In this document: in pieces, positions 7,836 to 47,786 of the stretch
Layout of the letters: every line of letters begins with the position of its first letter
How positions within the stretch are numbered: the stretch's first letter is position 1
UHGV virus genome: UHGV-0375936
Source: a virus
Direction: 5' to 3' (one strand)
DNA: 64,000 bases
Made by a program: the position numbers and the translations under genes
The notes under the pieces: generated by a model
What the model saw: the letters and a program-made list of their open reading frames with translations, nothing else
The model's database searches: none
Told to the model about the DNA's origin: nothing

Positions 7836-7868
7836 AAAAGAATTAACCCTACTCCCGGAGGAGTAGGG
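7836..7868 (-). terminator. Rho-independent terminator
   Basis: Hairpin CCCTACTCC-CGGA-GGAGTAGGG with A-run on plus strand (U-run on minus transcript). Confidence 0.55.
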
Positions 7869-7876
7869 GATTTAAA

Positions 7877-30860: not shown

Positions 30861-30873
30861 GGAGAATTTTTTG

Positions 30874-33800
30874 ATGAAAGCGTATCCTTACGATCCTCGG
30901 GGGACGAAAGCCGAGAATCACTTCTTAGAGGAGCGTATCATCGGGTCAGAGAACAACAACGATCGGGTGGTGATTTTAGACCACCGCCCGTTCTTTGAAG
31001 ATTTGGTCGTCAGACAACCAGGTTCAACCACCCCACTGAGTCGTGGGGTGGACTACGAACTGCAATATCAGCTGACGGAACTGGATGACTCGGTAGCAGC
31101 CAACGTGTATTGTGGGGTACACCTTATCAACCCATCCATCAAAGGCATCGTAACCTTTGAAGGACAAATGCTCGGCGGTACGTTCTACGACCCGTTTGTT
31201 GATATTCTCGATGAACTGGTGAAATATTTGAATAACCCTGTCAGTGCTGACTGGTTGTTATTAGACGGTAGACCATCGTTATATCCAGCGACGCCAGCAG
31301 CAACGTCCTGGGCGGATTTGCTGAACAAAAAATATTTAGCGTCGGCAGTTCACGATATTGAATTGAAAACCGACGACGCTAACCAGTTAATTAAAGACAA
31401 ATTAGCTGAAGTTAAAGCGTTAGTGACTGCGTTGGGTAAAGAAATCGAAGCATTTAACTACCCGGCACATATCGCGGAAACCAACCCACACAAAACCACA
31501 TCCGCGCAGATTAACGCGCATCCTGTTAACTTGAAAACACCCGACACCTTTATGGCGTACGGGTTAAAGTTGAAAGCGCTGACGGATGAGCTGAAAGCGT
31601 TTCGTTTACCCCAGTCAGTTATCGACACGTATATCTCTCACTGGATTTCTTCGGAAGTACGTGGCGTGTTTAACTGTACGGTGTCAGGAAACCGCGCACA
31701 GTTCCGTTCGAAAAACGGTGAGTCAGAAATCATTTTTGCCAACGATGGTTTTACGTTAAAATCCAACGGTTCTGTGGTATTAGCGGTAGGGCATCTGGAA
31801 GGTACGGGTGCAGGACGTTACATTAATTGGCGTGCCGGTAAAAACACATTACGCATCGAGTCAACAGGCGATGCTTTAGGGATGAACAAACTCACCCTGA
31901 ACGGTAACCCGTTACTGACTACCACGGCGTTGATGGAATACCAACAAGATCCAGATGCGGGTTCTGGTGGCGGTGGCGACCCTGATGACTCGAAGGTGTA
32001 CATTGAAGGCCGTAATGGGATTAGCTTTACCGGTAAAGGTTCTCGCGCCGACCCTATCGTGGGGACTATCGACCCAACAAAAGCGACAACCGCCGAAAAA
32101 GGCGTCGCTAAACTTAAAACAGGTAAAGGTACAGAAACGACTGGGGTTGCTGCAACTCCGGCTTCGTTAGCACCATACTCGACTGACCTATCGGGGTATG
32201 TGGCTAAAACGACCATGATTAACGGTAAGCCGATGAACGACGGCTCCAGGACAATCACGAAAGCTGATCTGGGGTTAGGGCAAGCGAATAACACCGCAGA
32301 CGTTGACAAACCGTTGTCTACCGAGTTAAATGCGGCGCTTAGCGGCTTAGCGGATGCAGGCCACCACCACGATTGGTCGGAACTCGGCATTTATAAAGCC
32401 TCGCAATCCGTTTACGGTATCGGTCGTTACGCAACTAACCAGAACGGTTTGGTTGAAAACCGTGCGGTAGTACCGAACATCTTAAAAGAACTTTCGGCGC
32501 GTTTAGATGTGGTTGCTGCGGCGATTGCAAACGCGAAAGAAGGATCGGTAACGGATTTCGCTGCGGTAAAAGGCGCAGAGTGGCGCTTTAATAGTCAGGG
32601 TACGGCAATCTCCGTTCAAGATTTGAAGTATTTCTATTTGCTGAACGGTACGAAAGCTGATAGCACCGTTACAGGTTCGATTGACCTGCAAACTACGCCG
32701 ATGTTTAACTGGTTCTCACCGAACAACCAAATTGAGACGACTTGGCCTACGGGGAAAGTGAGCGCTGGTAAGGGTATTAACTGGACAGGTATTGAAGAAC
32801 CACCACTAATGGGTTTCCAATCTGTTCCGGTAGGTAAAACTGCCTCACAGATGGGTGACCAGTCAGTTGTTACTGTGTTGGCCAAAACGCGGGTAAGGGC
32901 ACACCAGTCGAAGCTTTGGGTTTATGCCGCAGGGGGTGGTCCGGTTACAGTTTACATTAACGGTATCCAGGCAGCCACAGGCCAGTCTCCACTCGTTGCA
33001 GTGCATGAAACATCAGCAGACGTTGAAAACTACACCGTAGCGGTTAAAGCTGAGTGTAGCGACACAGCTAAATCCGCAGCGGTGCAATTCGAAATTTACG
33101 ACGGTGACTACCCCGTTTATTTCAGTGGCCCTGAAACGCGCGTAGAGCTTCTCCAAGAGTTTGTTACAACACACGTAGGGATTCGTCATTATCTGTACGT
33201 TAACATGCTCACAAGCTCTCTGTATTCGCGTACTGAGCCAATTCAGAGTGTTGCAGTTGATCCTGAGCGCGGTTATATCGGCTACGTTGATATTGTTGCC
33301 GGTGAGTCTTACGCGAATAAGAGCGTGAGTTTTGAAACCACGTTTGATTTCGGGAAAAGTGCCGAGGTTAGTGAACACATTGACACACGCAAAGCACACG
33401 GACTCAGCTCTGTAGACTGGACGTTAACGGATAACCCACGTTTCCCGTTATTAAATCGTGCGATTGCAGAGCCGAGAACGTGTATTTTTAGAAAAACGTT
33501 AACGGCCGGTACTGGTGACGTTTTTCATCTCGTGAGTCGTGGTCTTTATACTTACGCACATAACCAAAACGTGAAGTCCAGTCTTCAATACGTTGTGATA
33601 CCTGAAGGTGCTACACCGTATTGCTGGTTTACGCCGTTTAACCCGAAAGAAAACAACGCACCGACGTTCGAAGGTTCGTTTGTGTTCGACGTTGACGACG
33701 TCGGTGGAACACAAGCGCTCACGGCTGCACCGGATTTGGTGCTGTGTACGTCAACACAAGGTAGCAGCGTTAAACGTCGTTACGTACGTATTGACCTAAC

Positions 33801-35055
33801 TGCCAAAGCGTGTAAGCTGGGGATTGGTTCTCGTTCAGATTCTGCGGTTACGGATATCCCGTTAGTGATGGAGGAATCTGGGGAAACGGCGGTGGCGGCA
33901 ACGTTTAAGGATGTGTTGTTCAACGGCGAGGAAACCAACGCAGCGATACTCGACTTGATAGGCTGGGGTCCAAATAAAGACAAAATCTCTGCAAACCACG
34001 CGCCACGAGGTATGATTCGTTATCGTTACAACGTAAACACTCGGGTATTACGTTTAGCACTATCGTTCTCACAGTTCGGAACGACAACAGTTAAGCACCG
34101 CCAGTTGGAAATTGAATTTCCGTTTGATTTGGTGGATTACTTCACCGGTGACGGTGTAGGATTGTCGTTTAAAGAACTGTCTGCGAAATGCCGTGTAACG
34201 ATTAGCCACGCACTGATTGATCCGGTTACGACTAAAATCGATATTGATAAGTATCATTACCTACGCTCGTTATTTGAGTCGTATTTGGATGCATCTGTTG
34301 GTTATTTGGCTGATACCAAAGACGCCGACTTTAACCAGTCTGTGATTGACCCTGCGACTTATGAGATTAATCAGAAATACCGCGTTACCGAAAGCATTGC
34401 GCTGCCGACCGGTCAGGGAAGTGTTGCTGTTTCCCATGACGGTCAGTTACCTGCACAGTTCTTTGACCGTAAGCTGTCTCGCGGTGCTTTGATGGCCAAG
34501 AAAGGTGAACTTCATACTTCCTGGAACAATGAGTGGAGTACATCCAAAGCTGCCGCAAACCGGTATCGACATAAACTCATTCTGCGCTTTGCACAAGGTG
34601 CTGATAAACAACAGTACCGTGTTGCAAAAGTGACAGGAACGGTGAAGTGTAACTGGCCGGGCAAGGTGATTATCGGTGATGCTGGGAAGGACGCGTATGT
34701 ATCAGCTATCGATAGCGTGCCGTTTGCGCTTTCGACCAGCGCGGACACAGGTAAAGCAGTTACCCTTACGCCAAAGGATCTACGTGTAGGGCAGGACATT
34801 TATATTGTCTTAGAACCACCAGGCAATAATCCAGAAGGCTACGAGCTTAACTTTACCTGTTCGTTAGATGTCACTGACGAGAAAGGTGTCCGTCAAGACC
34901 AGCTCAATGCGCAGAGTTTCGAACTCCGTAGCGGCGAAAGTCAGTTCTTAATGGAGAAACGCAATCCGTACCACATCACGAGTAAAGCGTGGAAGTGGAT
35001 TCTGGCTGTACTGAAACGAGAACTTAACGGGAAGCAGTTAGGGGATCGTACTTAG
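30874..35055 (+). CDS. tail-fibre-like protein (paralog 2 of 4)
   Basis: 1394 aa from ATG after AAGGAGAA; shared N-terminal domain; repeat ATTAEKGVAKLKTGKGTETTGVAATPASL. Confidence 0.65.
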   Translation: MKAYPYDPRGTKAENHFLEERIIGSENNNDRVVILDHRPFFEDLVVRQPGSTTPLSRGVDYELQYQLTELDDSVAANVYCGVHLINPSIKGIVTFEGQMLGGTFYDPFVDILDELVKYLNNPVSADWLLLDGRPSLYPATPAATSWADLLNKKYLASAVHDIELKTDDANQLIKDKLAEVKALVTALGKEIEAFNYPAHIAETNPHKTTSAQINAHPVNLKTPDTFMAYGLKLKALTDELKAFRLPQSVIDTYISHWISSEVRGVFNCTVSGNRAQFRSKNGESEIIFANDGFTLKSNGSVVLAVGHLEGTGAGRYINWRAGKNTLRIESTGDALGMNKLTLNGNPLLTTTALMEYQQDPDAGSGGGGDPDDSKVYIEGRNGISFTGKGSRADPIVGTIDPTKATTAEKGVAKLKTGKGTETTGVAATPASLAPYSTDLSGYVAKTTMINGKPMNDGSRTITKADLGLGQANNTADVDKPLSTELNAALSGLADAGHHHDWSELGIYKASQSVYGIGRYATNQNGLVENRAVVPNILKELSARLDVVAAAIANAKEGSVTDFAAVKGAEWRFNSQGTAISVQDLKYFYLLNGTKADSTVTGSIDLQTTPMFNWFSPNNQIETTWPTGKVSAGKGINWTGIEEPPLMGFQSVPVGKTASQMGDQSVVTVLAKTRVRAHQSKLWVYAAGGGPVTVYINGIQAATGQSPLVAVHETSADVENYTVAVKAECSDTAKSAAVQFEIYDGDYPVYFSGPETRVELLQEFVTTHVGIRHYLYVNMLTSSLYSRTEPIQSVAVDPERGYIGYVDIVAGESYANKSVSFETTFDFGKSAEVSEHIDTRKAHGLSSVDWTLTDNPRFPLLNRAIAEPRTCIFRKTLTAGTGDVFHLVSRGLYTYAHNQNVKSSLQYVVIPEGATPYCWFTPFNPKENNAPTFEGSFVFDVDDVGGTQALTAAPDLVLCTSTQGSSVKRRYVRIDLTAKACKLGIGSRSDSAVTDIPLVMEESGETAVAATFKDVLFNGEETNAAILDLIGWGPNKDKISANHAPRGMIRYRYNVNTRVLRLALSFSQFGTTTVKHRQLEIEFPFDLVDYFTGDGVGLSFKELSAKCRVTISHALIDPVTTKIDIDKYHYLRSLFESYLDASVGYLADTKDADFNQSVIDPATYEINQKYRVTESIALPTGQGSVAVSHDGQLPAQFFDRKLSRGALMAKKGELHTSWNNEWSTSKAAANRYRHKLILRFAQGADKQQYRVAKVTGTVKCNWPGKVIIGDAGKDAYVSAIDSVPFALSTSADTGKAVTLTPKDLRVGQDIYIVLEPPGNNPEGYELNFTCSLDVTDEKGVRQDQLNAQSFELRSGESQFLMEKRNPYHITSKAWKWILAVLKRELNGKQLGDRT

Positions 35056-35093
35056 GACAGACTGCCTGCGGGCAGTTGTGTGTCCGTAGGTAA

Positions 35094-35130
35094 CCCCTCC
35101 CTGTAATGGGGAGGGGTATCCATTTTATTT
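35094..35130 (+). terminator. intergenic hairpin / possible attenuator
   Basis: CCCCTCCC-TGTAAT-GGGAGGGG hairpin with T-rich tail between fibre genes 2 and 3. Confidence 0.45.
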
Positions 35131-35149
35131 AAAAGTAGGAGTCTTTACG

Positions 35150-38100
35150 ATGCCGAGAGAAGACGCGGCGCAGTTTAACGGTACGCTAAGCACAACGACG
35201 TACCCTAACCGATTTAACGTGGTCATTCCGCCTGAAGGACCTTTTTATCGTATCGGATTAAAACTCACAGTAGCCGACGATACCGCGCCTAACGGACGTC
35301 GTACTCTGATTGAGGGGTTGGACTACTATTTAGGCTATTACTTTAAAGAACTCGCAGAAGCTGAACAAGATCAGATTTATGGCGGGTTTATGTTGCTTAC
35401 TGCAACAGAAATCGAATATGAGATTTTAGGGGTAGCACGTCAATACCGTGTACCGCAATCTGAAATCGGGAAGTTCTTAGTTCGTACTGACCTGAAAGAC
35501 CCACGTAACGTGGACTGGTCAGAGTTAATGGCGTATGCGCCAGTTATTCAACCTATCGATCCCCCTGCTAACTTAGAAGAAGCTATCCTGAGGGATGAGG
35601 TTGTTAAAGCGTTAAACGATATCCGTAAGAAAATCATTCAACGTTCAACAGAGTTAGATGCAGCGTTTACCGAAGTCACTAACCTGATTTACGAGAACGG
35701 TAAAAAGATTTTCGATGAAGAACTATACCAACACCACCTTAATCCTAACGCTCACCAGTATACGACCACTGATGTTGGTGCTCTTCCGGTTTTGGGACGT
35801 GCTGTTGACGCGACAAAAGCGTTTGGACTGACGATTGACCAGCTGGCTACGCTGATGGGTTCGGCGGGTATTGAGCAATCAGACGTTGATCAGTTAATAG
35901 GTGAAGCCCTCGGCACTGTTTACGGTCGTTGGGGCAGCACGAACGGTAACGAACTGACGTTTAAAACCGCAGGCGGACACATCATCAGTATCCGTGGTGA
36001 TAAGTGGTTAATTACCTCACCGCAACCGTTGGTGATTAAAGCAGACCAGGACAACAACGAATCGGGTTTGGCGGTTGAATTTAGTGCGGGGCTGAATACG
36101 CTTTGGGTACACTCTGGGACAGAACAAGATGTATTAGCGCCGGTTTACAACTCTGTGTATTTGGTTACACCAGAAATGGTGAACATGTACCTTACGTCTG
36201 TAACGTTACTTGAAGCAAATGCCTATTTCAAACCATCAGACACCGTAAAACCATACGGTACAGCGAAGCAGTCTAATCCGCTAACGTTGAACGCGAATAT
36301 CCCCACAGCAACCGAGTCGGTTTATGGGGTGTTTTCGATTACGAATATCGCAACCTCCGTAGCACTAGGCACTGCTATTTCCCAAAAGGCGGTGACCGAA
36401 TTAAAAGACCGGTTAGACTTGTACGTTGACGATGACTACACGGTTAACGGTAAAGGGTTTGTTAAGACAGGCGATAAAATGGTGTTAACCTTAACGAAAA
36501 CCGATTTCGGTATCGATAAGATGGATAACACCACGCCGATCGCTAAACCGGTAACAAAAGCGTTAGCGAATGTGCTGAAAAATAAAAGTTTGAAGGTGCA
36601 TACGCACACTACCGCCGATTTGGATAATGTCCCGATTGGTAGTGCGACCGTGGATGGTATCTTACAGCTGTGGGATGCGATTGATACCACGAATGATAAA
36701 GCCGTCACATCACGCCAAGGGTGGTTGTTCGCAAAAGAGATTAAGAAGGTCTCTGATAAACTGAATACCCTCTTGCCCGCATGGACAACGTCCGGGAGCA
36801 AATACACCAATAATTCGATATTGCCGATCTTGTCGATGGGTAATTACGAAGGTTATGGTAAAAACATGGATGCGCTCCAGATGGTTATAGGGGTACAACA
36901 AGGTAAGCTTTATGCTTTAATTAGTTCTAAATCTGCCCTTCCGGGAACTGAGGGTATTTATTACGCTGTTGCTGGGTTAAAAAACGACAAAAGTCTCGGT
37001 GAAATTTACAAAACAACTTTCCGTTATAAGCCGAAAGGGTTAGAGACGAATTATCCGGGGGTGGAACTAAAAGAAATTACCGTTACTGGCACCGAAGCAT
37101 TTATAGCGAAGGGCAGCGACGATAATTATTATTTAGTTAAACTGAACGGTTCAATGGATTACACCAAACATACCGATGTCAGGTTGGTAACTTTCTCAGA
37201 ATTTGTTTCAGAAACAACATGGGAATTTGTGCCGAATATGTTCATGGATCGTGTGGTCATAGCCGATAACGGCGTCTATGTTTTGCGTACGATGCTAATG
37301 GCCGATCTGAAAAACAATAGTCTGGTGGACTACATTAAGGATACTCCGCAACCTATGTTCCGTGTTGGGTTATTGCGACTTAATAAAACCGATCGGTTTG
37401 AACAGGTTGATTTAAGCTCTACACGAAAAATCGGTAAGTGTGCCGATTTGGTTGAACCTGGCGCGTTCGATGTAGATAATCCGAATACGAAGCGTCTTGC
37501 CTACTTCACTGCGGAAGGCAAAGCGTTGTGGACAGTGAATTTACAATTAACTAGAGGGGTGTCAAGATGGATAACGCCCGTTGTTAAGGACGGTCACTTG
37601 TTAACCGTCGGCGTGTCTGGCGTTTGTCTTGGTTTTTCTTCAACGAAAGGTACCACATTCGGGCCATGGAATGGTGCTTATCGTCTCGACCTATTAACCG
37701 GGGAGGTTGGGTTAGAGACAACTAACATCTTCCCAATCAAAATCGATACTACAGGTTGCTACTTAAAAGACGGAACAAAAATAGAGCTGAAATGGAAATG
37801 GGCTACTCGAAGTTCTGGCTATATGGCCGACAATAGAATCTGTGTCGGTGATATGGTTTATTCTTGCTGCTGTTCGACAGAAAAACAACTTGCACCGTCT
37901 CTCCATTACCAGAAACTCCCAGAAGGAGTTAGTTATCTGGACTATGTTAAGTTGAGTGCGGGGTATGAGGGGCAATCTACGTTTGAAAATCGGATAAACC
38001 CTGTGGTGGGTTCGGTGTGGAAACCGTCTATGACCTTCCCATTGTTCTTCCCAGGAACAAACAAAGTATGGCTTAAACATCAAAAAACGGCTTATTTCAT

Positions 38101-40336
38101 TGAAGCCGAATATGATAAAGATACGACTTATGGTTATCCTGGATACGGCGGGTTTGGACCAACATCCCGCCGTGTTGAAAAAAAAGCGAACGAATACGGC
38201 GTATTGACAAATATACCGCTGGTTGTTACGCCAGACATACCGAAAGGTCTACTAGATGGGGCTTACTTTATCGGTGCTGAAAGTAAACCATGTAAAGTTG
38301 TTTACGGTACCACTACGGTGGCTAGTGATCGGTTGTCTATCGATGCGGCAGAATGGGCGAAGTTGACTAATATTGTTCAGTCCAGCCAGTTCTCTGGGGC
38401 TTCTAACGGCAACGCCTATGAGCGGATTAGCGTAGCTAAGACCAAAAAGAACAACTACAGTTTGTCCTTTTGGGTGCTTGGTCAAACGATGTCTGGTGGT
38501 CCGCTTTGTATCGCGATAGTGAGTCTTATCTATAAAGACACTGACGGGGTAAATAAGTTTGCTTTTTACTTCTTTCAGGTAAAACCGACTATAACCAACG
38601 GGGTCATAAGGTTCGTTAGTTCGGAAGCGAGAATGATGACGTTCAGGGAAAAAGTGGCCAGTAACGCCATTAATCTCTCACCCACAGCTTTTAATGGTGA
38701 ACTTAAACAACGCTCCGGTCAAGTTTTCCTTTATTCGCAAGACGGACAAAAGTTCAGATTCTCAATACATAACCTGGTTGGCGGGAATCTTGTAGGATCA
38801 GAGATTTCTTTTGCTTTTGGGATAAACTTGACTAAAAAAGGAGAATGGTTTACCGGCGAAATTCATCGGGCGTGGGGCTATACGTATACGCTGAATAATA
38901 CATCTGAAGTCTATATACCCGATCTCTCGGGCATCGCGCTATTGACTTGTAACTCGGAAGATTTAAACGAGTTGTATCTCGGTGGCGAACAGTATAGAAT
39001 CTCTGATTTGTTTAACAAAAAATATACTGTTATCGATAAGATTATTATTGGCGGCGTACAAACACAGAGCGGTTGGAATTTCTATCTGACGGAGGAAACC
39101 GAGTTAAGTTTTGGAAATAAAAGATATACCGTTCCAAGATGGTCCGTTGATTTAAGCGATGAATTCCCGACTAATCACGCTAACCAGACATTCTACGTTT
39201 ATGCTGAAGTGGTCGGTTCTACTGCCCAATACCGCATCGGTTTAGAGCAGTTAGCTGATACCTCGTCGAGACTGTTTGTTGGGACAGTAACCACTGATTC
39301 GAACCGTATTACGGATATCAGTATCGATAAAGTAAAACGGTTAGGTCGTGTAAAAGAGCTGGAAAATCATGCCTCGGTTGTTGATCAGCACGATGTGGCG
39401 CAGGCGTTCGACAGGAAAACTGGTCCACTATTAACAGTGGTTAATAAACCCGTTAAAGCCATTACAGCATCTGCGAGCAAGGGTGCTGGGTATGTCGATG
39501 GCCAGAAATGGAATACGTTGTCCGGGATTGCAACGCGGCCCAGGTTGCCGGTACAGGAAACCTATTCAGGTTATAAAAGTATCAGCAGGGTGGCGTATGA
39601 GAACTGCGCTGACCAGTTCTGGCAGAAAGCGGTTGCTGCGAACGTTGCAGCGGCTACTGCTTCTGAGAACAAACAAGCAGCAACCGCGAACATGAAGTGG
39701 TTGGGTGCGTATACGAAACCGACTACCGGCGAGTATGCATATCTGGCATTGAGTCTGCGTGTTAAAGTACCTGGCGATCCTGGTACTACTAATCGTCGAC
39801 TGAAAATCAGGCTTGCGGCCCCGACAGGTATAACTCAAGTTCGTTACGGGCTAAATCAGTCTGGCGGTACGATGACTGAACAGACAGTAACGCTAACTGC
39901 TAACAGTTACCTGGAAAAAGAACACGCGGGATTTAAGCCAGCCGCCGAAGTCCGCCTTCATGCTACGTTTGTCATTCCAAAAAATGAATACGATAGCTAC
40001 CGGACCAAATTTGGTGCTGTTCAGCTGATTGACGTTGAGACGAACACTGTCATTAAACAGACAGATATCGACACACCGTTTATCGTGTACACCGCCACAG
40101 AGCAAGCGGCACAATCTGGTTTGGTGTATAAAGCGGTTAAGAGTCAGTTTCGTCAACTCCCGGCTCAACCTGTCGTCATTGTAACTGATGGACAGACAGG
40201 GACTACACCACCGGTGAAAACCGCATATTCTGACGGCACGTTAACGGTCTACGTGGCAACCACGTACGATGCGGTTAACCCAGCACAAACTCGCGATATC
40301 GATAAGCTCCAGTTCAATCTTATGTTTACATCTTAA
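35150..40336 (+). CDS. tail-fibre-like protein (paralog 3 of 4)
   Basis: 1728 aa; AGGAG RBS; shared N-terminal domain (PPEGPFYRIGL...GLDYYLGYY). Confidence 0.65.
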   Translation: MPREDAAQFNGTLSTTTYPNRFNVVIPPEGPFYRIGLKLTVADDTAPNGRRTLIEGLDYYLGYYFKELAEAEQDQIYGGFMLLTATEIEYEILGVARQYRVPQSEIGKFLVRTDLKDPRNVDWSELMAYAPVIQPIDPPANLEEAILRDEVVKALNDIRKKIIQRSTELDAAFTEVTNLIYENGKKIFDEELYQHHLNPNAHQYTTTDVGALPVLGRAVDATKAFGLTIDQLATLMGSAGIEQSDVDQLIGEALGTVYGRWGSTNGNELTFKTAGGHIISIRGDKWLITSPQPLVIKADQDNNESGLAVEFSAGLNTLWVHSGTEQDVLAPVYNSVYLVTPEMVNMYLTSVTLLEANAYFKPSDTVKPYGTAKQSNPLTLNANIPTATESVYGVFSITNIATSVALGTAISQKAVTELKDRLDLYVDDDYTVNGKGFVKTGDKMVLTLTKTDFGIDKMDNTTPIAKPVTKALANVLKNKSLKVHTHTTADLDNVPIGSATVDGILQLWDAIDTTNDKAVTSRQGWLFAKEIKKVSDKLNTLLPAWTTSGSKYTNNSILPILSMGNYEGYGKNMDALQMVIGVQQGKLYALISSKSALPGTEGIYYAVAGLKNDKSLGEIYKTTFRYKPKGLETNYPGVELKEITVTGTEAFIAKGSDDNYYLVKLNGSMDYTKHTDVRLVTFSEFVSETTWEFVPNMFMDRVVIADNGVYVLRTMLMADLKNNSLVDYIKDTPQPMFRVGLLRLNKTDRFEQVDLSSTRKIGKCADLVEPGAFDVDNPNTKRLAYFTAEGKALWTVNLQLTRGVSRWITPVVKDGHLLTVGVSGVCLGFSSTKGTTFGPWNGAYRLDLLTGEVGLETTNIFPIKIDTTGCYLKDGTKIELKWKWATRSSGYMADNRICVGDMVYSCCCSTEKQLAPSLHYQKLPEGVSYLDYVKLSAGYEGQSTFENRINPVVGSVWKPSMTFPLFFPGTNKVWLKHQKTAYFIEAEYDKDTTYGYPGYGGFGPTSRRVEKKANEYGVLTNIPLVVTPDIPKGLLDGAYFIGAESKPCKVVYGTTTVASDRLSIDAAEWAKLTNIVQSSQFSGASNGNAYERISVAKTKKNNYSLSFWVLGQTMSGGPLCIAIVSLIYKDTDGVNKFAFYFFQVKPTITNGVIRFVSSEARMMTFREKVASNAINLSPTAFNGELKQRSGQVFLYSQDGQKFRFSIHNLVGGNLVGSEISFAFGINLTKKGEWFTGEIHRAWGYTYTLNNTSEVYIPDLSGIALLTCNSEDLNELYLGGEQYRISDLFNKKYTVIDKIIIGGVQTQSGWNFYLTEETELSFGNKRYTVPRWSVDLSDEFPTNHANQTFYVYAEVVGSTAQYRIGLEQLADTSSRLFVGTVTTDSNRITDISIDKVKRLGRVKELENHASVVDQHDVAQAFDRKTGPLLTVVNKPVKAITASASKGAGYVDGQKWNTLSGIATRPRLPVQETYSGYKSISRVAYENCADQFWQKAVAANVAAATASENKQAATANMKWLGAYTKPTTGEYAYLALSLRVKVPGDPGTTNRRLKIRLAAPTGITQVRYGLNQSGGTMTEQTVTLTANSYLEKEHAGFKPAAEVRLHATFVIPKNEYDSYRTKFGAVQLIDVETNTVIKQTDIDTPFIVYTATEQAAQSGLVYKAVKSQFRQLPAQPVVIVTDGQTGTTPPVKTAYSDGTLTVYVATTYDAVNPAQTRDIDKLQFNLMFTS

Positions 40337-40376
40337 CGCCACGAGACAAGGACGTCTCGGATTAAGGAGAGTGGCC

Positions 40377-41576
40377 ATGGCCTCCATTGTATACCAATAC
40401 CCTTTAGATTTAACGGGAACCCTAACCTCTAACGCCGTGGAGCGTCAGGTTACGTTAGGTACAGGTAAAGTTAACCGTGCGTTTGCTTTTCCTGACGGTC
40501 CGTTTTATGCTGATACGTTCCGCTTGCGGGTTGCTAACCGCCCAGATGCGACGTATGAGCGCGGAACGGACTATGAGTTGATTTTTGCACACCCGGCTTA
40601 CGAGAAATTGACGAAGAACCGGGAAGTGGTAATGGCGGTTGTTGTAACGAACACCGCGATTCCGACCGATATCACGGTATCGGCGCAAGTAGTCGGGGGC
40701 CCGCAGTCGGCAAACGTGACTGCGATAGAACAGGCGATTGCTGAGTTGAATCTCGATAATCGAACTGTTGGCTTTAAAGACTTGCGAAATGTTCCTGATA
40801 CATTTCCTTCGGCACCAACGTATAAAGACGTCGGCGATATTTACGGCTTCGAATACATCATTACAGTGCTCGCCGGTATTAAAGATGCGATAACTGCTGG
40901 CGATGCTGTACAGCTTGAGAACATCAAAGCGATTCTCGAAAGCCTGAAAAACGATTTCCTGGACGCGCTGAACGCGCACATTAACGCCACGGGTAACGTC
41001 CACCATCTGGATATTCACCAGGTTAACGGGTTAACAGAAACGGAGATCCGTGCACTGATCCGTGACGTACAGTCTGCCATCGATGCAACCATTACTGATA
41101 TTAATGCGTTGAAGAAAGCAGACGAAGCGTTAGGAAAACGTATTGATGCTGTTGTCAAATCTCTGGAAGCGTGGAACGACCAACTTAACGTCGTTGCACA
41201 AAACTACCAGAAAATGGCACTGGCAATGGCGAACCTAAACTCGTTAGTGTTACAGTTACAGAAAAATATCAACGATCTGAGCACCAAACTCAACCAAGCG
41301 ATTCAACGTATTGCTGCGTTAGAACAGCGGGGTAATGAGTCCGATCAGAAAATTGATAAACTGCAACAAAACCTGGATGCGCTTAAACAGCAGGTTAATA
41401 ATAACACGAACGCAATCAGTCAGGCGAATCAGAACCTACAAAACCATATTGCGGCAGACAACCCACACACAGGCTATCTCCACAAGAAATACGGTGGTGT
41501 GGTTCAGGCTCCAGTGCACGTTAACGCTAACTTGACGTCCCGTGATGACGTTCAGGCAGAAGCGGGTACGAAATAA
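40377..41576 (+). CDS. tail-fibre-like protein with coiled coil (paralog 4 of 4)
   Basis: ATG after AAGGAG; N-terminus FPDGPFYADTFRL...GTDYELIF shares the fibre N-domain; long heptad-like C-terminal region. Confidence 0.6.
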   Translation: MASIVYQYPLDLTGTLTSNAVERQVTLGTGKVNRAFAFPDGPFYADTFRLRVANRPDATYERGTDYELIFAHPAYEKLTKNREVVMAVVVTNTAIPTDITVSAQVVGGPQSANVTAIEQAIAELNLDNRTVGFKDLRNVPDTFPSAPTYKDVGDIYGFEYIITVLAGIKDAITAGDAVQLENIKAILESLKNDFLDALNAHINATGNVHHLDIHQVNGLTETEIRALIRDVQSAIDATITDINALKKADEALGKRIDAVVKSLEAWNDQLNVVAQNYQKMALAMANLNSLVLQLQKNINDLSTKLNQAIQRIAALEQRGNESDQKIDKLQQNLDALKQQVNNNTNAISQANQNLQNHIAADNPHTGYLHKKYGGVVQAPVHVNANLTSRDDVQAEAGTK

Positions 41577-41643
41577 CTTTATTACAGGAGGAACTATGCT
41601 TATGGGCGTAGTCCTCCATTCTTTTTTATTTTAAGGATACGTG

Positions 41644-42039
41644 ATGGCGATCAGTGTTAAAAATGTACGTGACCGAATCACCAACGTAGAGAACCAAATG
41701 GCAACTGGCCCACGTGTTGATCCGCAAGTTGCGTCGAAAGCACATAATGCCGCCGACACTTTTTCGGGTTGGACGCCAAGTCGGTTAGACTGCGGGGGAA
41801 GTTGCAGCTGGACGTGCTCAAACGGCTGTACGCACGGCTGTACGAGTTGTTCGGGCACCTGTACGTCAGTATGTGTAGGTAGCTGCTCCTCTGCGTGCGG
41901 TAACCAGTGTACTGGATGTAGTTCAACATGTTCCGGCGGCTGTTCAGGTTGCAGTGGGACCTGTGGTGGTGCTTGCTCGGGCCGTTGTTCTACGGGTTGT
42001 TCTGGTGCTTGCTCTGGTGGCTGTTCTGGCCCAACCTAA
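41644..42039 (+). CDS. Cys-rich peptide A, candidate RiPP precursor
   Basis: AAGGA RBS; about 50-aa leader then about 80-aa core with about 21 Cys, mostly C-x3-C (CGGSCSWTCSNGCTHGC...); track ORF starts 3 nt earlier at GTG. Confidence 0.6.
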   Translation: MAISVKNVRDRITNVENQMATGPRVDPQVASKAHNAADTFSGWTPSRLDCGGSCSWTCSNGCTHGCTSCSGTCTSVCVGSCSSACGNQCTGCSSTCSGGCSGCSGTCGGACSGRCSTGCSGACSGGCSGPT

Positions 42040-42049
42040 GAGGTGAAAA

Positions 42050-42448
42050 ATGGCAATTGGATTACCTGCGCTACAAGCGCGGCTAAATAACATTGACAAC
42101 ACTGCATTGAAGAATACGGGTGCAGTGCAAAACTATATTCGTGGGAAAGCGACGAACAACGCAGACTTATTCGGTGGACAAGCTCGCAACCATTACGACT
42201 GTGGTGGGAGCTGTAGCTGGACCTGTTCGAGCTGTTCTGGTGGTTGTACAGGGAACGCATCAGGCGGCTGTGGTTCTTCGTGTTCTGCAAACTGTGTATC
42301 AGGTTGCAGCGCAGGCTGTAGCGGATGTTCGAATACATGTTCTGGTGGCTGCTCAGGAAGCTGTACGGGGAGTTGTTCTAACTCGTGTGTGGGAAACTGT
42401 TCTTCAGGCTGCTCGGGCAGTTGTTCTGGTGGGTGTTCTGGGAGGTAA
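42050..42448 (+). CDS. Cys-rich peptide B, candidate RiPP precursor
   Basis: GAGGTG RBS, 10 nt after peptide A stop; core DCGGSCSWTCSSCSGGC... with about 20 Cys. Confidence 0.6.
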   Translation: MAIGLPALQARLNNIDNTALKNTGAVQNYIRGKATNNADLFGGQARNHYDCGGSCSWTCSSCSGGCTGNASGGCGSSCSANCVSGCSAGCSGCSNTCSGGCSGSCTGSCSNSCVGNCSSGCSGSCSGGCSGR

Positions 42449-42450
42449 TT

Positions 42451-42657
42451 GTGATTAGCCTTAAGAACCTTCGTGATCGATTAGTAACAGCGGAAGGGTA
42501 TATTACGACCGCTAACGCAAACAACTATATTGCAAACCAGGGCACCGTGTCTTCAACCAATAACCTTGCCGGTTTACCTTTAAGCCATTATAACTGTAAC
42601 GGCGGATGTAGCTGGTCGTGTAGCGGTAGCTGTAGTAAAGGCGCGGGGGGAAGGTAA
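42451..42657 (+). CDS. short Cys-rich peptide C, candidate RiPP precursor
   Basis: GTG start 5 nt after GGAGG, 2 nt after peptide B stop; leader VISLKNLRDRL resembles peptide A; core NCNGGCSWSCSGSCSKG. Confidence 0.5.
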   Translation: MISLKNLRDRLVTAEGYITTANANNYIANQGTVSSTNNLAGLPLSHYNCNGGCSWSCSGSCSKGAGGR

Positions 42658-42806
42658 CTAAGCCCTCCAGTGGTAGTATGTCTATTACGCAATAACCGAG
42701 TTAATCGTACGGGTTTACTACTGAGTTTCAAGTTACCGGTAGGCAATGGTGCGGTGGTTTCTATACCCTGAATGTCCGTTTGACCGTGAAATAATTGGAG
42801 CAATCA

Positions 42807-43694
42807 ATGAAGAATGATTTACATTTAGCATACAAAACAATTTTCAATCATCCACTTCACATTTCTTCCCCTGATTCCGTACGTGCACACTTAGCAGATG
42901 AAGTTCGTCTGCTGACTCAGTTGCCGGGCGAATGGCCTAAAGTACGCGGACGTTTCTTTACCGATCGTAAAAACTATCGTGTAGAAAATACGTTTAAGAT
43001 TCGTGATCTGACGGCAGAAAGTGTGGTGGTCTTTACCGGTGACTCCGAGTTGCGTGGTAAACTGGTTGCGGGTAAATATTTCTTTAGTGACGGGATTTTG
43101 AATAACTCCGTAGATATGGAATTGTTCTTTACCCCATTTGAAGAAATGGGCGCAAAACCGGTTGCCCGTCGTTGGTGGTCACCGGATTACTTAGGCTCGT
43201 TCCCGTATTTCTTTACCCTGGTAACACCAGAAACGAAGAACTATTTCGATACGGAATCGTATATCGAAATTGAAGGGTACGAAGCGTTAGGGATTAATTG
43301 CTTAGCGGATTTAATGGCGTATAGCTATAAGTTCGTGTGGGATCGTGAACGTTCCGTGTGGGTTGCCCTGACGGATGAACATGAAATCACAAAACGCATC
43401 CGTAAGCCTTGGATGCAGCATTTGATTCAAACGCGTATTGGCGAGCATCCGTCAACAGAAGCGGATCTGGCAAAACTCCTTAGTTTCTTAATGACGAAAG
43501 TCACGTTAACTGACGAAGAGAAAGCAGCAGTGTCGGCGGTGTTGGACCGTAACGTAACGTTAGCGGATTTAGAACGTTTAAATGTCCGTTATAAAGACCT
43601 TAACCGTATTTTGGAAGCGTATAACTCTCCATTCTTGTTAACCCCTGGTGCTAACGTAGACGACGATCCTTTGTTCGCCATTGATTATATTTAA
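42807..43694 (+). CDS. hypothetical protein, candidate RiPP accessory
   Basis: ATG at 42807 with GGAG RBS; 296 aa between precursors and radical SAM genes; no motif recognised. Confidence 0.55.
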   Translation: MKNDLHLAYKTIFNHPLHISSPDSVRAHLADEVRLLTQLPGEWPKVRGRFFTDRKNYRVENTFKIRDLTAESVVVFTGDSELRGKLVAGKYFFSDGILNNSVDMELFFTPFEEMGAKPVARRWWSPDYLGSFPYFFTLVTPETKNYFDTESYIEIEGYEALGINCLADLMAYSYKFVWDRERSVWVALTDEHEITKRIRKPWMQHLIQTRIGEHPSTEADLAKLLSFLMTKVTLTDEEKAAVSAVLDRNVTLADLERLNVRYKDLNRILEAYNSPFLLTPGANVDDDPLFAIDYI

Positions 43695-43715: not shown

Positions 43716-44639
43716 ATGACAACCAATGCAGAACCAAGGTTATCGAATCGTTTATACGATAAACCCACCGTATTGTCCGTAGTCGCTACGTCCAAGTGTA
43801 ACCTGGATTGTAGCTTCTGCGGTGGAGCCTATTACATGAATCGTGAAGATTCTCCGCGAGAGTTTCAACGTGAGCGAATTTTGGAAGCGCTGGAAGCTAA
43901 TCCAACCATTACCGAAATTCAGTGGACGGGTGGTGAGCCATTACTGGCAACCCGTAAAATTGAGGCGTTTGTTGACGAATTAAAAGTGATTCGTCCAGAA
44001 CTCAAACACCAGTTGTATACCAATGGCTTAAAGATGCGTAAATCGCATCTCCCGTTGCTAAAACAGTTTGACAATGTCTACGTTAGCATCGATGGGTTTA
44101 AGTCGTCTGAGCGCCCGTTTATGCGCTTTATTGACGAAGGCTGTTACGAAGCACTGGAAACGATCTACGAGCTGGATAATGTCCAGACTTGGGGTGTCCT
44201 GACACGGGACCGTTTAGGGGACAAACGCTGGCACGAAGATATTATTCAGCTGCACAGCGCGATTTACCATTACGGTTTCCGTGCAATGACGTTACTCTTA
44301 GATGCGAAAATGCCAAAACCTTTATCGCCTGACCACGTCATGAACTTTATTTACGGCTACTATCAGGTTCAGGATAACATTGAACGACTGAATGTAGTAA
44401 ATAGTCGTGAATGCGGCTTTACAGTAAGTAAAGTGTTTGAAGAAGGGTGTAACGTTTGCAGCGAAAGTCTTTGGATTAATGCAGACGGCGGTGAGCACCA
44501 ACTCCAGAATGCACCTAACGTTCTGGAATCGGGATGTAACCAACTGGCCTTCTCTATCGGTGTAGAGGCGTACGAATATATTCGTCGCGTAGTGATGGCA
44601 GGGCGTAATAGAGGGGCGGCAAATGAGTCAAGTAAATGA
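43716..44639 (+). CDS. radical SAM enzyme
   Basis: CNLDCSFC (CxxxCxxC) near N-terminus, GGEPLL SAM-binding motif, four more Cys in the C-terminal third. Confidence 0.8.
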   Translation: MTTNAEPRLSNRLYDKPTVLSVVATSKCNLDCSFCGGAYYMNREDSPREFQRERILEALEANPTITEIQWTGGEPLLATRKIEAFVDELKVIRPELKHQLYTNGLKMRKSHLPLLKQFDNVYVSIDGFKSSERPFMRFIDEGCYEALETIYELDNVQTWGVLTRDRLGDKRWHEDIIQLHSAIYHYGFRAMTLLLDAKMPKPLSPDHVMNFIYGYYQVQDNIERLNVVNSRECGFTVSKVFEEGCNVCSESLWINADGGEHQLQNAPNVLESGCNQLAFSIGVEAYEYIRRVVMAGRNRGAANESSK

Positions 44640-45945
44640 ATTCCCTAAGCAGTTAACGTATCAGATCGTAACCAACCTTTCGTGTAACCTGGACTGCGAA
44701 TATTGTTACGAACGTAAGTACCCGCGTAACAACAAAGCGGCGGATATTGTTGATTTCTTACACGCCTGTTTTGAACGTGATAAAAACGAACCGAATGTTG
44801 AAGTTATTATCGACATTATCGGTGGTGAGCCGTTCATGCAGCCTAAACTGCTGCTGGCTGCGTTTGAAACCGCTGAGCAGTTGTGTAAAGAACACAACCG
44901 ACCGTTTATGTTTAGTATTTCCACGAACGGAACGCTGTTAGATCGTCCGTTGAACCGTGAGATCGTAGAACGTTGGAAAGATAAACTTTCGGTTGGGGTT
45001 TCGATTGACGGCTTACCTGAGTCCCATGACCGTTATCGTATCTTCACAACAACACGCCAGGGTTCTTACGAAGCCGCAGTACGTGGCTATAACTACTTAA
45101 AAGAGGTTGGCATTGCAGAGCTCGGCGTAAAAGCAACCTTTACGTTAGAAACGCTGCCGTTCTATGCTGCGGGGATGAAGTCATTAATTGACATTACTGG
45201 CGGTGGGACAATTTCTGGAAACGTAACTTTCGAAGACGTTATGCCGCGTAGCATGGCGACATCAATCGCTTTACAGATGATGGATGTGATCGATTATTGG
45301 GTTGAGAAAGGATTACACACCAACCCACGTAATATCTTATCGCACATCATTCCAGAAGGGTTGGATTTCGATACGATTTGGGAACCGAACTGGCGTGACC
45401 AGTTACTGTATAATGACACCGTACGGTTGAACCCAGAACGTTTACGTCCGTTCTGTGGGACGTTAACGCACATGACGTGCTTAGGATTTGACCGTAAGAT
45501 CTTTGGCTGTAACCGCTTTATGTCAACGGTAACGTCGCGTTCTGCGGTGTTTGAGTTGGTAGGTCGGGAATTCGTCAGTCTGGACAACGGTAAGCTGCTA
45601 GAAGAGATTCAAACGCAATATACCAACTACCCAGAGACCTGTTTAGGTTGTCCGATGAAACACGCTTGTGGTAGCTGTGCTGCGGCTTCTTACGAGAACG
45701 GGGAAGGAACGTTAGAAGACCGTAAGGCGTATCACGCTGAACGACGTCAGTGCGGCTGGACGACAGCGAAACTGATGGTGGCGGAATACTGGAAACAGAA
45801 GATGGGTACGACGTCAGCAAAAGCGTTCCATGACACGAGCATGTGTTATTGCCCACGCTGTGTTCGTGAACGTGCCCAAAAGGAAAAATTATTAAGAGAA
45901 GCCAAAGATGAAACCAATTCTGATCAACAATATTACGAAGCGTAG
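44623..45945 (+). CDS. radical SAM enzyme with SPASM-like domain
   Basis: CNLDCEYC, IGGEPF, STNGTLL, and C-terminal CLGCPMKHACGSCAA Cys cluster; 17-nt overlap with upstream radical SAM gene. Confidence 0.8.
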   Translation: MSQVNEFPKQLTYQIVTNLSCNLDCEYCYERKYPRNNKAADIVDFLHACFERDKNEPNVEVIIDIIGGEPFMQPKLLLAAFETAEQLCKEHNRPFMFSISTNGTLLDRPLNREIVERWKDKLSVGVSIDGLPESHDRYRIFTTTRQGSYEAAVRGYNYLKEVGIAELGVKATFTLETLPFYAAGMKSLIDITGGGTISGNVTFEDVMPRSMATSIALQMMDVIDYWVEKGLHTNPRNILSHIIPEGLDFDTIWEPNWRDQLLYNDTVRLNPERLRPFCGTLTHMTCLGFDRKIFGCNRFMSTVTSRSAVFELVGREFVSLDNGKLLEEIQTQYTNYPETCLGCPMKHACGSCAAASYENGEGTLEDRKAYHAERRQCGWTTAKLMVAEYWKQKMGTTSAKAFHDTSMCYCPRCVRERAQKEKLLREAKDETNSDQQYYEA

Positions 45946-46480
45946 AATTCGACTTCTGGATAAGTTTCTGGAAAACAGTAAGCTATTCGGTTGTTATGTG
46001 GTGATTAACGGTGAAGATTTTACCGATGACGTAAAACGCTTACTGATTCGTCACGGCGTGACTGTAATCATCCCAATGTACTGCACCGAACTTACTGACC
46101 TGTCGGTCGCGGAAATTGAAAAACGTAACCCAGGGTTTGAAGAACGGGTATTGGATTTCCCACGTCACAAAATTGCGTTTCTACGCCGCTCTTTAAGCGA
46201 ACCCAGCGCAGAATCTATCACTGTGTTGGCATTGTCCTTCCCAGGCATTACTATCTTCGCAACACGTAACCCGAACTCACCGATTGATGGGTTTTACGAT
46301 GAGCGGGAGAAATTTAATAGCGTGATTTTTCCTGAACTAACGCCAGAAGAATGTCAGGGTATCCGTATCGATTGGGAATCGGACTTCGACACAAGATTCC
46401 GTCATATCGATTTTGAACTGTTAATCGAATTAGGGTTGATTAAAGGAGACGATGAATGTCTGCTACTGGTGAAGGCTTAA
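45908..46480 (+). CDS. hypothetical protein
   Basis: 190-aa ORF overlapping the end of the radical SAM gene. Confidence 0.5.
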   Translation: MKPILINNITKRRIRLLDKFLENSKLFGCYVVINGEDFTDDVKRLLIRHGVTVIIPMYCTELTDLSVAEIEKRNPGFEERVLDFPRHKIAFLRRSLSEPSAESITVLALSFPGITIFATRNPNSPIDGFYDEREKFNSVIFPELTPEECQGIRIDWESDFDTRFRHIDFELLIELGLIKGDDECLLLVKA

Positions 46481-47127
46481 CGAAAGAAGAAATCCGTCGC
46501 CGTTATTTTGCGCACGATTTACCGATTGACCGTCATGGTAACTACATGGAGAAAATCGGTAGCGAAGATCACGGCCGTACAGGGTTTTGTGCATTACTGC
46601 ACTATAAGTTGATTGATGGGATGTCTGATCGCGAAGCATTGGAGCAAATGCGTAACTACGACATGTCTGAAATCGAAGCACGGTTTACGCTACAGAAAGC
46701 GAAAGACTTTGTTAACGACACGCTGGGAATTGACCTGGAAGAGATTCGTACGGGGTTACGTTCCACCGTACGGTACATCTTTACCGATGTTCAGAAAATT
46801 CTAAGCGCTTTGGAATTCCGTTATCAGGATGCGCGCTATGCTGAGATTCAGGTAGGTGATTTCACTTTCCAGGCAGATGAGAAGTCACAGGTAGCACTGA
46901 GTCGTTATATCCAGTCAGAAACTGCGCCAGCGTATTGGTTAACGGCTAACAACACCCGTATCGAACCGTTTACGTTAGAACAGTGCAAGACGTTGCTGGC
47001 AGCAATCGTTGAGCGTGATCAAAGACTACACCACGCAATGTCTGAGCAGAAAAGAGAAGTCAGGGCTTGGGCTGAAGCACGTGATTACGATTCGATAAAA
47101 GCGTTTGCGTTAGAGCAAGGGCTGTAA
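46456..47127 (+). CDS. hypothetical protein
   Basis: 223-aa ORF overlapping previous gene; last gene before bidirectional terminator. Confidence 0.5.
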   Translation: MSATGEGLTKEEIRRRYFAHDLPIDRHGNYMEKIGSEDHGRTGFCALLHYKLIDGMSDREALEQMRNYDMSEIEARFTLQKAKDFVNDTLGIDLEEIRTGLRSTVRYIFTDVQKILSALEFRYQDARYAEIQVGDFTFQADEKSQVALSRYIQSETAPAYWLTANNTRIEPFTLEQCKTLLAAIVERDQRLHHAMSEQKREVRAWAEARDYDSIKAFALEQGL

Positions 47128-47134: not shown

Positions 47135-47190
47135 CGAAAAAAACAGTATACCTACCTCCCGTAATAGGAGGTAGGTATTTTTATTTTTTC
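47135..47190. terminator. bidirectional Rho-independent terminator
   Basis: 12-bp perfect stem ATACCTACCTCC-CGTAATA-GGAGGTAGGTAT flanked by A-run and T-run. Confidence 0.7.
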
Positions 47191-47721
47191 TTAGGACGTA
47201 AAACCGTCCAGCTCACCGTTGGTGGTGGCCAGGTCAATACGATTATCAACAACCTTCGGCGTAATTACGAAAGTTGCCATTACACCTGGCTTATAACGGA
47301 GGTTCTTTTCAGTAACGGTACACGTTACCGTACGCAGAGTGACGCTATCGTGTTCGTCTTTCTGGTCTTCGGTGGTGTACTCAGCGTCACCAGGTGCGAT
47401 AGAGTCGTCAGGTTTTACTTTATTGATGTAAAACTGTAATCGGTCGCGTAGTTCGTTTTCTCCAGTCCAGAGAGCCAAATCGTCCGTTACCTCAATGCGT
47501 CCGACAACGCCAGGTTCCAGACGATCGTAATGCAGTTCGATTGCGCCTTTAAAATTTTCAGACTCTGTACGTGCGGTCATGGTAACTTTGGTATTTTTAT
47601 CGCCCTTTTCAAGAGCGACAGGTTGACCAAAAGTTACCTCTTTATCAGTGACCTGATGCGGTAGCTCTGTGTTAGCAGCATTATAAAGCGCAACTAACAT
47701 CATCTGGTTAGTAGCTGCCAT
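47191..47721 (-). CDS. putative virion protein, paralog family B
   Basis: Shares NTKVTMTARTESENFKG...HYDRL and NGELDGFT with 47787..48353. Confidence 0.5.
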   Translation of the reverse strand: MAATNQMMLVALYNAANTELPHQVTDKEVTFGQPVALEKGDKNTKVTMTARTESENFKGAIELHYDRLEPGVVGRIEVTDDLALWTGENELRDRLQFYINKVKPDDSIAPGDAEYTTEDQKDEHDSVTLRTVTCTVTEKNLRYKPGVMATFVITPKVVDNRIDLATTNGELDGFTS

Positions 47722-47786
47722 TATCTTAAATCCTTAAAATGAAAGTTAAAGAAATATCGGGGGAGGTTACCCCCCCCCCGAATCAA

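Follow-up and report, generated by a model that had tools for sequence, protein, structure and literature searches.

A predicted cluster-less radical SAM-like protein and a DUF4376-family protein at the end of the fibre operon of a jumbo phage resembling SPN3US

Organization of the locus

ORF190 and ORF223 are two neighbouring genes, named after their open reading frames (ORFs) of 190 and 223 amino acids (aa), in a 64,000-nucleotide (nt) stretch of the virus genome UHGV-0375936. The whole of this stretch is called the window here. The two genes stand at the end of a cassette that encodes Cys-rich CXXX-repeat proteins and two radical S-adenosylmethionine (SAM) enzymes, one small and one large (Table 1). 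The region shows synteny with Salmonella phage SPN3US (Seoulvirus, 240-kb genome) and forms the tail-fibre operon of a jumbo phage that resembles SPN3US. The analysis described below points to ORF190 as a non-catalytic partner of the radical SAM enzymes and to ORF223 as a fibre chaperone, the two being the last coupled cistrons of the fibre operon. We hold this joint reading to be slightly on the probable side.

ORF190 overlaps the large radical SAM/SPASM gene by 38 nt. ORF223 in turn overlaps ORF190 by 25 nt and has a strong Shine-Dalgarno sequence (AAGGAG) 7 nt before its ATG. Overlap lengths of 38–41 nt and 22–25 nt, respectively, are kept in phages SPN3US, CR5, Wellington, and Asesino, which represent four genera. 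Full-length homologues of both ORFs are known, with identities of 33–99%. When a relative of approximately 75% identity was compared, the ratio of nonsynonymous to synonymous changes (pN/pS) was 0.16 for ORF190, 0.28 for ORF223, and 0.05 for the large radical SAM enzyme, the synonymous sites being saturated. The homologues, the pN/pS values, and the conserved overlap lengths mean that ORF190 and ORF223 are real conserved coding genes.

Isolated phages, IMG/VR, metagenomes, and Logan assemblies supplied related loci (designated L001 and so on), which were scanned with purpose-built hidden Markov models (HMMs). In 62 isolated phage genomes, from jumbo phages of Salmonella, Escherichia, Proteus, Erwinia, and Cronobacter, the genes for ORF190, ORF223, and the large radical SAM enzyme co-occur and are adjacent, and the gene order is identical in these genomes and in many metagenomic contigs. 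A hairpin lies 21 nt past the stop codon of ORF223. It has a stem of 12–13 bp with an A-run on the 5' side and a T-run on the 3' side, and it gave a terminator score on both strands. On the + strand, a terminator-like site was searched for between 41467 and 47148, and none was found. The original prediction had described the two ORFs as overlapping the SPASM enzyme and each other and as the last genes before a bidirectional terminator, and the ORF listing and the hairpin confirm this. It had also considered them to be probably co-transcribed with the maturases. Co-transcription is well supported, because the frames overlap, no terminator lies between them, and the gene order is identical among the phages. 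The hairpin ends a + strand block of about 20 kb (26538–47127), and this part of the window has no other block of this kind.

Two contigs of metagenome CYGL01, both from one sample, encode a large radical SAM enzyme 100% identical to that of the window. In these contigs, frameshifts split the ORF190 homologue (L086, 6914–7497) or the homologue of SPN3US gp165 (L085, 6172–7069). The frameshifts are probably assembly or sequencing errors, not signs of pseudogenes.

Table 1. Features of the tail-fibre operon in the window
Feature	Position	Strand	Family or basis
Three giant fibre candidates (1440, 1394, and 1728 aa) and a 435-aa gene	26538..41576	+	Homologues of SPN3US gp170, gp169, gp168; gp167
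Three Cys-rich CXXX-repeat proteins	41641..42657	+	phrog_6085
Individual Cys-rich genes	41641-42039, 42050-42448, short one ~42451-42657	+	Short one: GTG start, GGGAGG Shine-Dalgarno
299-aa protein, gp165 family	42795..43694	+	phrog_8030
Small radical SAM enzyme, gp164 homologue	43716..44639	+	PF04055; hhalign against ORF190 family P=0.008, TNG/SxDG register; co-occurrence and fusion
Large radical SAM/SPASM maturase, 440 aa, gp163 homologue	44623..45945	+	PF04055; 3' end overlaps ORF190
ORF190, soluble acidic 22-kDa protein, predicted cluster-less radical SAM-like partial TIM barrel	45908..46480	+	SPN3US gp162 family; phrog_7988; 190 aa, ATG start (ORF listing)
ORF223, whole gene	46456..47127	+	223 aa, ATG start (ORF listing)
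ORF223 N-terminal helical domain, residues 1-~123, phage-clade specific	46456..46824	+	AF2 secondary structure; HMM finds orthologues only; no Pfam match
ORF223 C-terminal DUF4376 domain (residues 124-211) and C-terminal tail	46825..47127	+	PF14301; Foldseek; hhalign to V22 gp27
Bidirectional intrinsic-terminator-like hairpin	47148..47178		Closes + strand fibre operon and convergent head-protein genes

Sequence family and predicted fold of ORF190

The AlphaFold2 (AF2) model of ORF190 was confident, and its best fold matches were radical SAM cores. In this model the chain adopts the fold of a partial (β/α)6 triosephosphate isomerase (TIM)-barrel core. The sequence gave no family match in Pfam, NCBIfam, or PADLOC, and in PHROGs it matched only a family annotated as of unknown function. 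Searches of PDB sequences with the family profiles of ORF190 and ORF223 gave chance matches only (E ≥ 0.2). The ORF190 family is tiny: an exhaustive HMMER search of 1.84 billion proteins yielded 29 representatives, all of them stand-alone proteins of about 170–205 aa. It is a phage-only, previously undescribed family of cluster-less proteins that apparently derive from radical SAM enzymes.

The CX3CX2C motif for the [4Fe-4S] cluster, or a variant of it, is absent from ORF190. In close relatives Cys184 alone is invariant, and the 25-member alignment contains no conserved Cys. Nor does the family have a conserved GGE motif; GEDF occurs only in close relatives, and its column is variable family-wide. 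The INGEDF sequence of ORF190 was considered as a relic of GGE and was rejected, since in deeper alignments it falls on the TNG strand. ORF190 matched neither PF04055 nor an NCBIfam radical SAM model. Comparison with the radical SAM families of the cassette by hhalign gave only P 0.008, and a shallow ORF190 alignment gave insignificant results against single radical SAM sequences.

The alignments by hhalign put ORF190, the cluster-less domain of a natural fusion protein (see below), and the small radical SAM enzyme in one register (P 3.5e-4, 5.7e-4, and 0.008). ORF190 starts at the strand that bears GGE in the live enzyme and extends through the TNG and SxDG/HDxxRG region. Each of these P values is modest alone; taken together with the fold, homology of ORF190 to the radical SAM core is the best reading. 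Because the whole segment for cluster binding is missing, ORF190 seems, from its sequence, to be unable to initiate radical chemistry.

Linkage of ORF190 to the radical SAM enzymes

A homologue of ORF190 is located directly 3' of the large radical SAM gene in all loci that have available downstream sequence and an enzyme at least 47% identical to that of the window. In L003 the cassette order is permuted (large radical SAM, ORF190, peptides, gp165-like, small radical SAM), and in L004/L005 the cassette lies among non-structural genes, away from fibre genes. In both cases ORF190 still follows the large radical SAM gene. ORF190 is missing from L039, L098, L099, and L101, where the large enzyme is only 32–37% identical and the small radical SAM enzyme is also absent.

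The viral contig L038 (213 kb) has a natural fusion. It encodes, just upstream of the large radical SAM gene, a 472-aa protein made up of a small radical SAM enzyme and a second domain. The N-terminal part is a genuine enzyme with CNMQCSFC, GGEPF, and NTNG motifs, and the second domain of about 215 aa is without the cluster. The ORF190 HMM matches the protein twice, at residues 57–134 (the live core) and 316–382 (the dead copy), with a full-sequence E value of 1.6e-7 when the ORFs of the 85 sequences collected were searched. The small-radical-SAM HMM also matches it twice. A second fusion, a 471-aa variant with 81% identity and the same neighbours, is present in L135, which comes from an independent sample; therefore, the fusion is not an assembly artefact.

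The invariant adjacency with translational coupling, the co-occurrence with the small radical SAM enzyme, and the natural fusion suggest that ORF190 physically works with the radical SAM enzymes. The small enzyme, an apparent paralogue, is the most likely partner and is the probable ancestor of ORF190 as well. ORF190 would be a degenerate radical SAM core without the [4Fe-4S]/CX3CX2C segment and the SAM-binding motifs. It would bind the maturases, most likely the small one, as a scaffold or a substrate-holding subunit, and would exert this role while the Cys-rich CXXX-repeat proteins are modified. The original prediction had also allowed that the two genes may be unrelated passengers. This does not agree with the behaviour of ORF190, which tracks the radical SAM genes in rearranged cassettes and is fused in two phages; the same proposal is weak for ORF223, the more separable of the two.

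A point against a purely supporting role is the strongly conserved patch of ORF190, made up of S-x3-IE-x-RNPGFE and LALSFP, which could itself be an active site. ORF190 might then be an enzyme with a small TIM-barrel-like fold (a hydrolase, isomerase, or transferase), responsible for non-radical tailoring of the Cys-rich proteins or for removal of their N-terminal region. This seems unlikely. No functional family was matched in Pfam, NCBIfam, PHROGs, or PADLOC, and the top fold matches were radical SAM cores, not hydrolases. The conserved motif aligns with the SxDG...HDxxRG..F region of radical SAM enzymes, which is non-catalytic. Furthermore, fusion to a live radical SAM enzyme is the pattern expected for a subunit.

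The non-catalytic partner proposed here can be compared with known systems. Like the PapB and TIGR04115 maturases, ORF190 has a partial (β/α) barrel with what appears to be a relic of the TNG/SxDG/HDxxRG..F region, and it shares an operon with two real radical SAM enzymes and Cys-rich CXXX-repeat substrates. It differs from them in having only 190 aa and in lacking CX3CX2C, GGE, SPASM, and PF04055. Eukaryotic Dph1–Dph2 is an example of a radical SAM-type enzyme with a catalytically inactive paralogue as a subunit. The concept of a degenerate duplicate kept as a partner is the same in Dph1–Dph2, in the "pseudo-SAM/SPASM" family TIGR04347, and in ORF190, although the sequences are unrelated; the match to TIGR04347 came from the large radical SAM enzyme, not from ORF190. 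Unlike that of Dph1–Dph2, the partnership of ORF190 is deduced from linkage and gene fusion. ORF190 may also be analogous to the PqqD-like recognition elements (RREs) of peptides that are ribosomally synthesized and then post-translationally modified (RiPPs), since it is a small separate protein beside a radical SAM maturase that has no N-terminal RRE. Its predicted fold is a β/α barrel and not a winged helix, and there was no match to PF05402.

In L012, L013, L021, L036, L087, and L088, where the large radical SAM enzyme is 93–94% identical to that of the window, an extra copy of the small radical SAM gene is located between the two long Cys-rich genes (for example, 3273–4193 in L013).

ORF223 and the DUF4376 chaperones

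PF14301 (DUF4376) matches residues 124–211 of the 223 residues of ORF223 with an E value of 5e-11 and 43.5 bits, compared with a gathering cutoff of 25. The CR5 and L007 orthologues also match PF14301; the L006 orthologue does not. The AF2 model of ORF223 has two domains, a variable N-terminal domain and a C-terminal DUF4376 domain. The placement of DUF4376 is similar in gp27 of Alteromonas phage V22 (residues 87–187 of 195; 76 bits on PF14301) and in A5 gp9 (residues 138–231 of 239). V22 gp27 was aligned with the ORF223 family profile by hhalign over 121 columns (P 6e-4), with F-Q-x-D-x-x-S ... W-L-T-A-(D/N)-N ... P as the common core. The Foldseek neighbours of ORF223 in BFVD are DUF4376 phage proteins.

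Several members of this family have been characterized. V22 gp27 is needed in trans for a functional receptor-binding fibre and is absent from the final complex (PMC7289586). A5 gp9 is listed as a DUF4376 tail-fibre chaperone (PMC10579305), and the H-fibre of Campylobacter CJIE1 requires a co-expressed DUF4376 gene (PMC7882524). ORF223 resembles these chaperones in size class, in the two-part architecture, in a PF14301 match above the cutoff, and in the core F-Q-x-D-x-x-S ... W-L-(T/D)-x-x-N ... P-(F/M)-T. Its gene also lies 3' of fibre genes, on the same strand. The differences are that ORF223 is parted from the fibre genes by the three-enzyme radical SAM cassette and that its N-terminal domain is unrelated to theirs.

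The chaperones resemble ORF223 also in being non-virion proteins, as far as SPN3US gp161 can serve as its proxy. In SPN3US, gp161 and gp162 (the ORF223 and ORF190 homologues) are correctly annotated and are absent from the 86 virion proteins detected, while gp160 and gp167–173 are present (PMC5694885, Supplementary Table 1). This list records proteins down to 4 spectra (PMC5694885). The text of that paper gives "161" among the head paralogues where the table gives 160, which was taken as a slip in the text.

In PHROGs, ORF223 gave weak matches to tail-fibre and tail families (phrog_1807 and phrog_2837). A 232-aa tail-fibre assembly protein of L039 matches phrog_1807 in its full length; unlike this protein, ORF223 has no match to Caudo_TAP (PF02413) or phrog_105. 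The role presumed for ORF223 is that of the Tfa/gpU-type proteins (Caudo_TAP, phrog_105), and L039 carries one of these just upstream of a fibre gene with a CXXX tip. The difference is that ORF223 resembles only the C-terminal part of phrog_1807.

ORF223 would thus be a non-structural chaperone acting in trans. Its N-terminal domain would recognise a client fibre encoded upstream, and the DUF4376 domain would aid trimerisation, after which ORF223 would leave the particle. Candidate clients are the giant fibre paralogues and the 435-aa gp167 homologue encoded with them, or the Cys-rich mini-fibres. It might be considered instead that ORF223 is a structural distal-tip or cap protein retained on the virion in the manner of TfaMu, because some DUF4376 proteins bear tail-fibre or tail-protein annotations (phrog_1807 and phrog_2837) and PMC10579305 describes the A5 homologue as a transient fibre cap. 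The absence of gp161 from a virion list that reaches down to 4 spectra makes such a structural role quite improbable.

Some observations weigh against assignment of ORF223 as a chaperone of this operon. Unlike classical chaperone genes, ORF223 is not immediately 3' of a fibre gene: going upstream, the first fibre-like genes are those ending at 42657 (Cys-rich) and 41576, and three genes and ORF190 lie between them and ORF223. DUF4376 is also found within some structural fibre proteins. In addition, ORF223 was not found in the flanking sequence available for L003, L004/L005, and L095, which keep the peptides, the enzymes, and ORF190. ORF223 seems best described as a member of the DUF4376 fibre-chaperone family in an unusual position, with a probable chaperone activity.

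In every SPN3US-like genome, and likewise in the divergent contigs L006, L007, and L094, ORF190 is followed by an ORF223 homologue that has both domains. Since ORF223 is missing from three otherwise complete cassettes, it is not needed for the radical SAM chemistry and is separable. A 70-aa ORF that follows the ORF190 homologue of L004 was considered as a relic of the N-terminal domain and was rejected (HMM E ~9).

This separability raises the possibility, about which we are doubtful, that ORF223 is independent of the radical SAM cassette. In that case it would serve the giant fibres (the gp168–170 homologues), and the cassette would have been inserted between these fibre genes and ORF223. The cassettes without ORF223 are in favour of this, and so are their surroundings: the neighbouring fibres of L003 carry Peptidase_S74 domains, L004 has no fibre genes nearby, and the giant fibres of the window have no S74 intramolecular chaperone domain and no other Pfam match. 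Against it, the ORF190–ORF223 pair with its 22–25-nt overlap is kept in at least four genera (Seoulvirus, Derbicusvirus, Wellingtonvirus, and Erskinevirus) and in the three divergent contigs mentioned above, and the evolutionary rate of ORF223 is similar to that of ORF190. The same observations bear on the client. A role on the giant fibres fits the absence of ORF223 beside S74 fibres (L003) or where fibres are not nearby (L004); the tight coupling of ORF190 and ORF223 agrees equally well with a role on the Cys-rich mini-fibres.

The Cys-rich module and the role of the cassette

The NCBIfam models nearest to the large radical SAM enzyme are the ranthipeptide maturase PapB and the CXXX-repeat maturase TIGR04115, both matched below the cutoff. 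In three unrelated phages, fibre proteins of 267–568 aa have the Cys-rich module (phrog_6085) as their C-terminus. These proteins are found in L038 (568 aa, 3352–5058), in L135 (559 aa, 5751–7430, after a T4 gp13-like neck gene), and in L039 (267 aa, 6373–7176). The N-terminal part of the L039 protein matches long-tail-fibre distal subunits, and its gene is preceded by collar-domain fibres and the Tfa-type assembly protein. Each of the three fibre genes adjoins a homologue of the large radical SAM gene (32–37% identity). A junction motif, A-x-x-L-x-G-Q-x-x-S-x-Y-x-C-G-G-x-C-S-W-x-C, is common to the CXXX-tipped fibres and the stand-alone Cys-rich proteins.

Because of this junction motif at the fibre C-termini, the operon context, and the presence of the DUF4376 gene, the cassette is more likely to serve fibre morphogenesis than to produce a secreted toxin. 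The original prediction had taken it for a peptide cassette and had proposed remote homology and structure prediction as a check. This check led from ORF223 to the DUF4376 fibre chaperones, outside classical peptide maturation, and from ORF190 to a fold like that of the radical SAM core. The cassette appears to belong to fibre morphogenesis, and the peptide-cassette view is corrected in this respect.

Immunity, export, and proteolysis had been put forward as candidate roles for the two genes, which would make them classical RiPP accessory genes for a secreted Cys-rich peptide toxin, the protease acting on the leader. It is true that they end a cassette with Cys-rich precursors and two radical SAM enzymes and that the large enzyme is closest to PapB and the CXXX-repeat peptide maturases. 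Searches of Pfam, NCBIfam, PHROGs, and PADLOC gave no match to a peptidase, an ABC or other transporter, an immunity or defence family, or an RRE. Both proteins are soluble and acidic, and neither has a membrane-helix-like stretch, which speaks against export and immunity; the maximum 19-residue Kyte-Doolittle mean was 1.43 for ORF190 and 0.57 for ORF223. ORF223 bears a fibre-chaperone domain, the cassette is located inside a fibre operon, and the Cys-rich module is a fibre C-terminus elsewhere. These accessory roles are regarded as very improbable.

The virion proteomics of SPN3US should be considered in this context. The deposited gp166 (111 aa, Val/Ala-rich) was called out of frame across a Cys-rich gene. 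SPN3US has three real Cys-rich genes (130, 134, and 68 aa), all of them unannotated, at 6950–7342, 7353–7757, and 7773–7979 of L001; the stretch 6950–7979 corresponds to the complement of ~143191–144220 in NC_027402/JN641803. If the annotated proteome was the search database, the proteomics could not report the Cys-rich proteins. The silence on "gp166" is not counter-evidence, because the real Cys-rich ORFs are not annotated.

The gp165 family occurs in most cassettes with the Cys-rich module and was not detected in L038, L096, and L098. A scan of representative genome contigs with the large radical SAM enzyme gave only distant radical SAM genes of Geobacter and Saccharibacteria and no bacterial or prophage copy of the cassette. 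Literature searches on CXXX-repeat radical SAM enzymes, jumbo-phage radical SAM enzymes, and phage ranthipeptides found nothing relevant.

Two long Cys-rich paralogues and one short one (60–69 aa) are present in each of three distantly related cassettes: the window (41641–42657), L003 (10553–11533), and L004 (6055–7016). The short paralogue stops right after C-G-G-x-C-S-W and has no CXXX repeats. A similar amphipathic N-terminal helix in all three paralogues might suggest a heterotrimer. In L098, an AT-rich phage contig, a large-radical-SAM homologue is followed by a 127-aa protein (9701–10084) with a C-terminal CXXX repeat. The N-terminus of this protein is a small globular domain and is not fibre-like; the module is present also on other kinds of protein.

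The whole block, comprising the Cys-rich trio, the gp165-like protein, the two radical SAM enzymes, ORF190, and ORF223, might build a covalently cross-linked virion fibre. The radical SAM enzymes, held together or fed by ORF190, would put thioether-type cross-links in the Cys-rich tip, and ORF223 would trimerise the tip. This extension of the proposal is tentative, and we would not call it probable.

Neighbouring genes

SPN3US gp168–170 are virion proteins and candidates for baseplate or fibre components, and gp167 is a virion protein (PMC5694885). In the window, the gp167 homologue (40269–41576), if read from its mechanical start at 40269, shares 68 nt with the 1728-aa gene. From a comparison with SPN3US gp167, the true start seems to be an internal ATG at approximately 40374, giving MASIVYQYPLDLTG. 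The YPLDLTG N-terminus of the gp167 homologue is also kept in the distant homologue of L003.

The gene after the terminator hairpin is convergent and homologous to gp160, an abundant head protein. Two tandem DUF7941 genes (47191–47721 and 47787–48353, both on the - strand) are gp160 homologues, and SPN3US has one copy there. A hairpin containing G10 (47757–47781) separates the two genes. SPN3US gp160 is a head protein with an estimated copy number above 300 per capsid. The gene at 49549–50223 on the - strand encodes a DUF1353 protein (E 1.3e-14). Its homologues in SPN3US, CR5, and Wellington carry the RefSeq label "tail assembly chaperone", and in CR5 and L006 the DUF1353 gene is located directly 3' of the ORF223 homologue on the same strand.

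Implications

The record of SPFM2, a phage of the SPN3US group, annotates the two radical SAM enzymes as AlbA and MoaA, in the style of RiPP or bacteriocin clusters. If the proposal made here is true, the cassette would be reclassified from a phage-borne RiPP/bacteriocin cluster to a system of tail-fibre morphogenesis. This would apply to a whole clade of jumbo phages of Salmonella, Escherichia, Erwinia, and Cronobacter, which are used as candidates for biocontrol. The unnamed core genes of SPN3US for gp161 and gp162 now have testable functions, and the lack of all three Cys-rich genes in the SPN3US reference annotation accounts for the proteomic silence. A stand-alone, cluster-less family derived from radical SAM enzymes is identified, and a natural fusion points to its partner. 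If the cross-linked fibre were real, it would be the first radical-SAM-modified viral structural protein, made by the first radical SAM enzyme with a dedicated pseudo-enzyme subunit.

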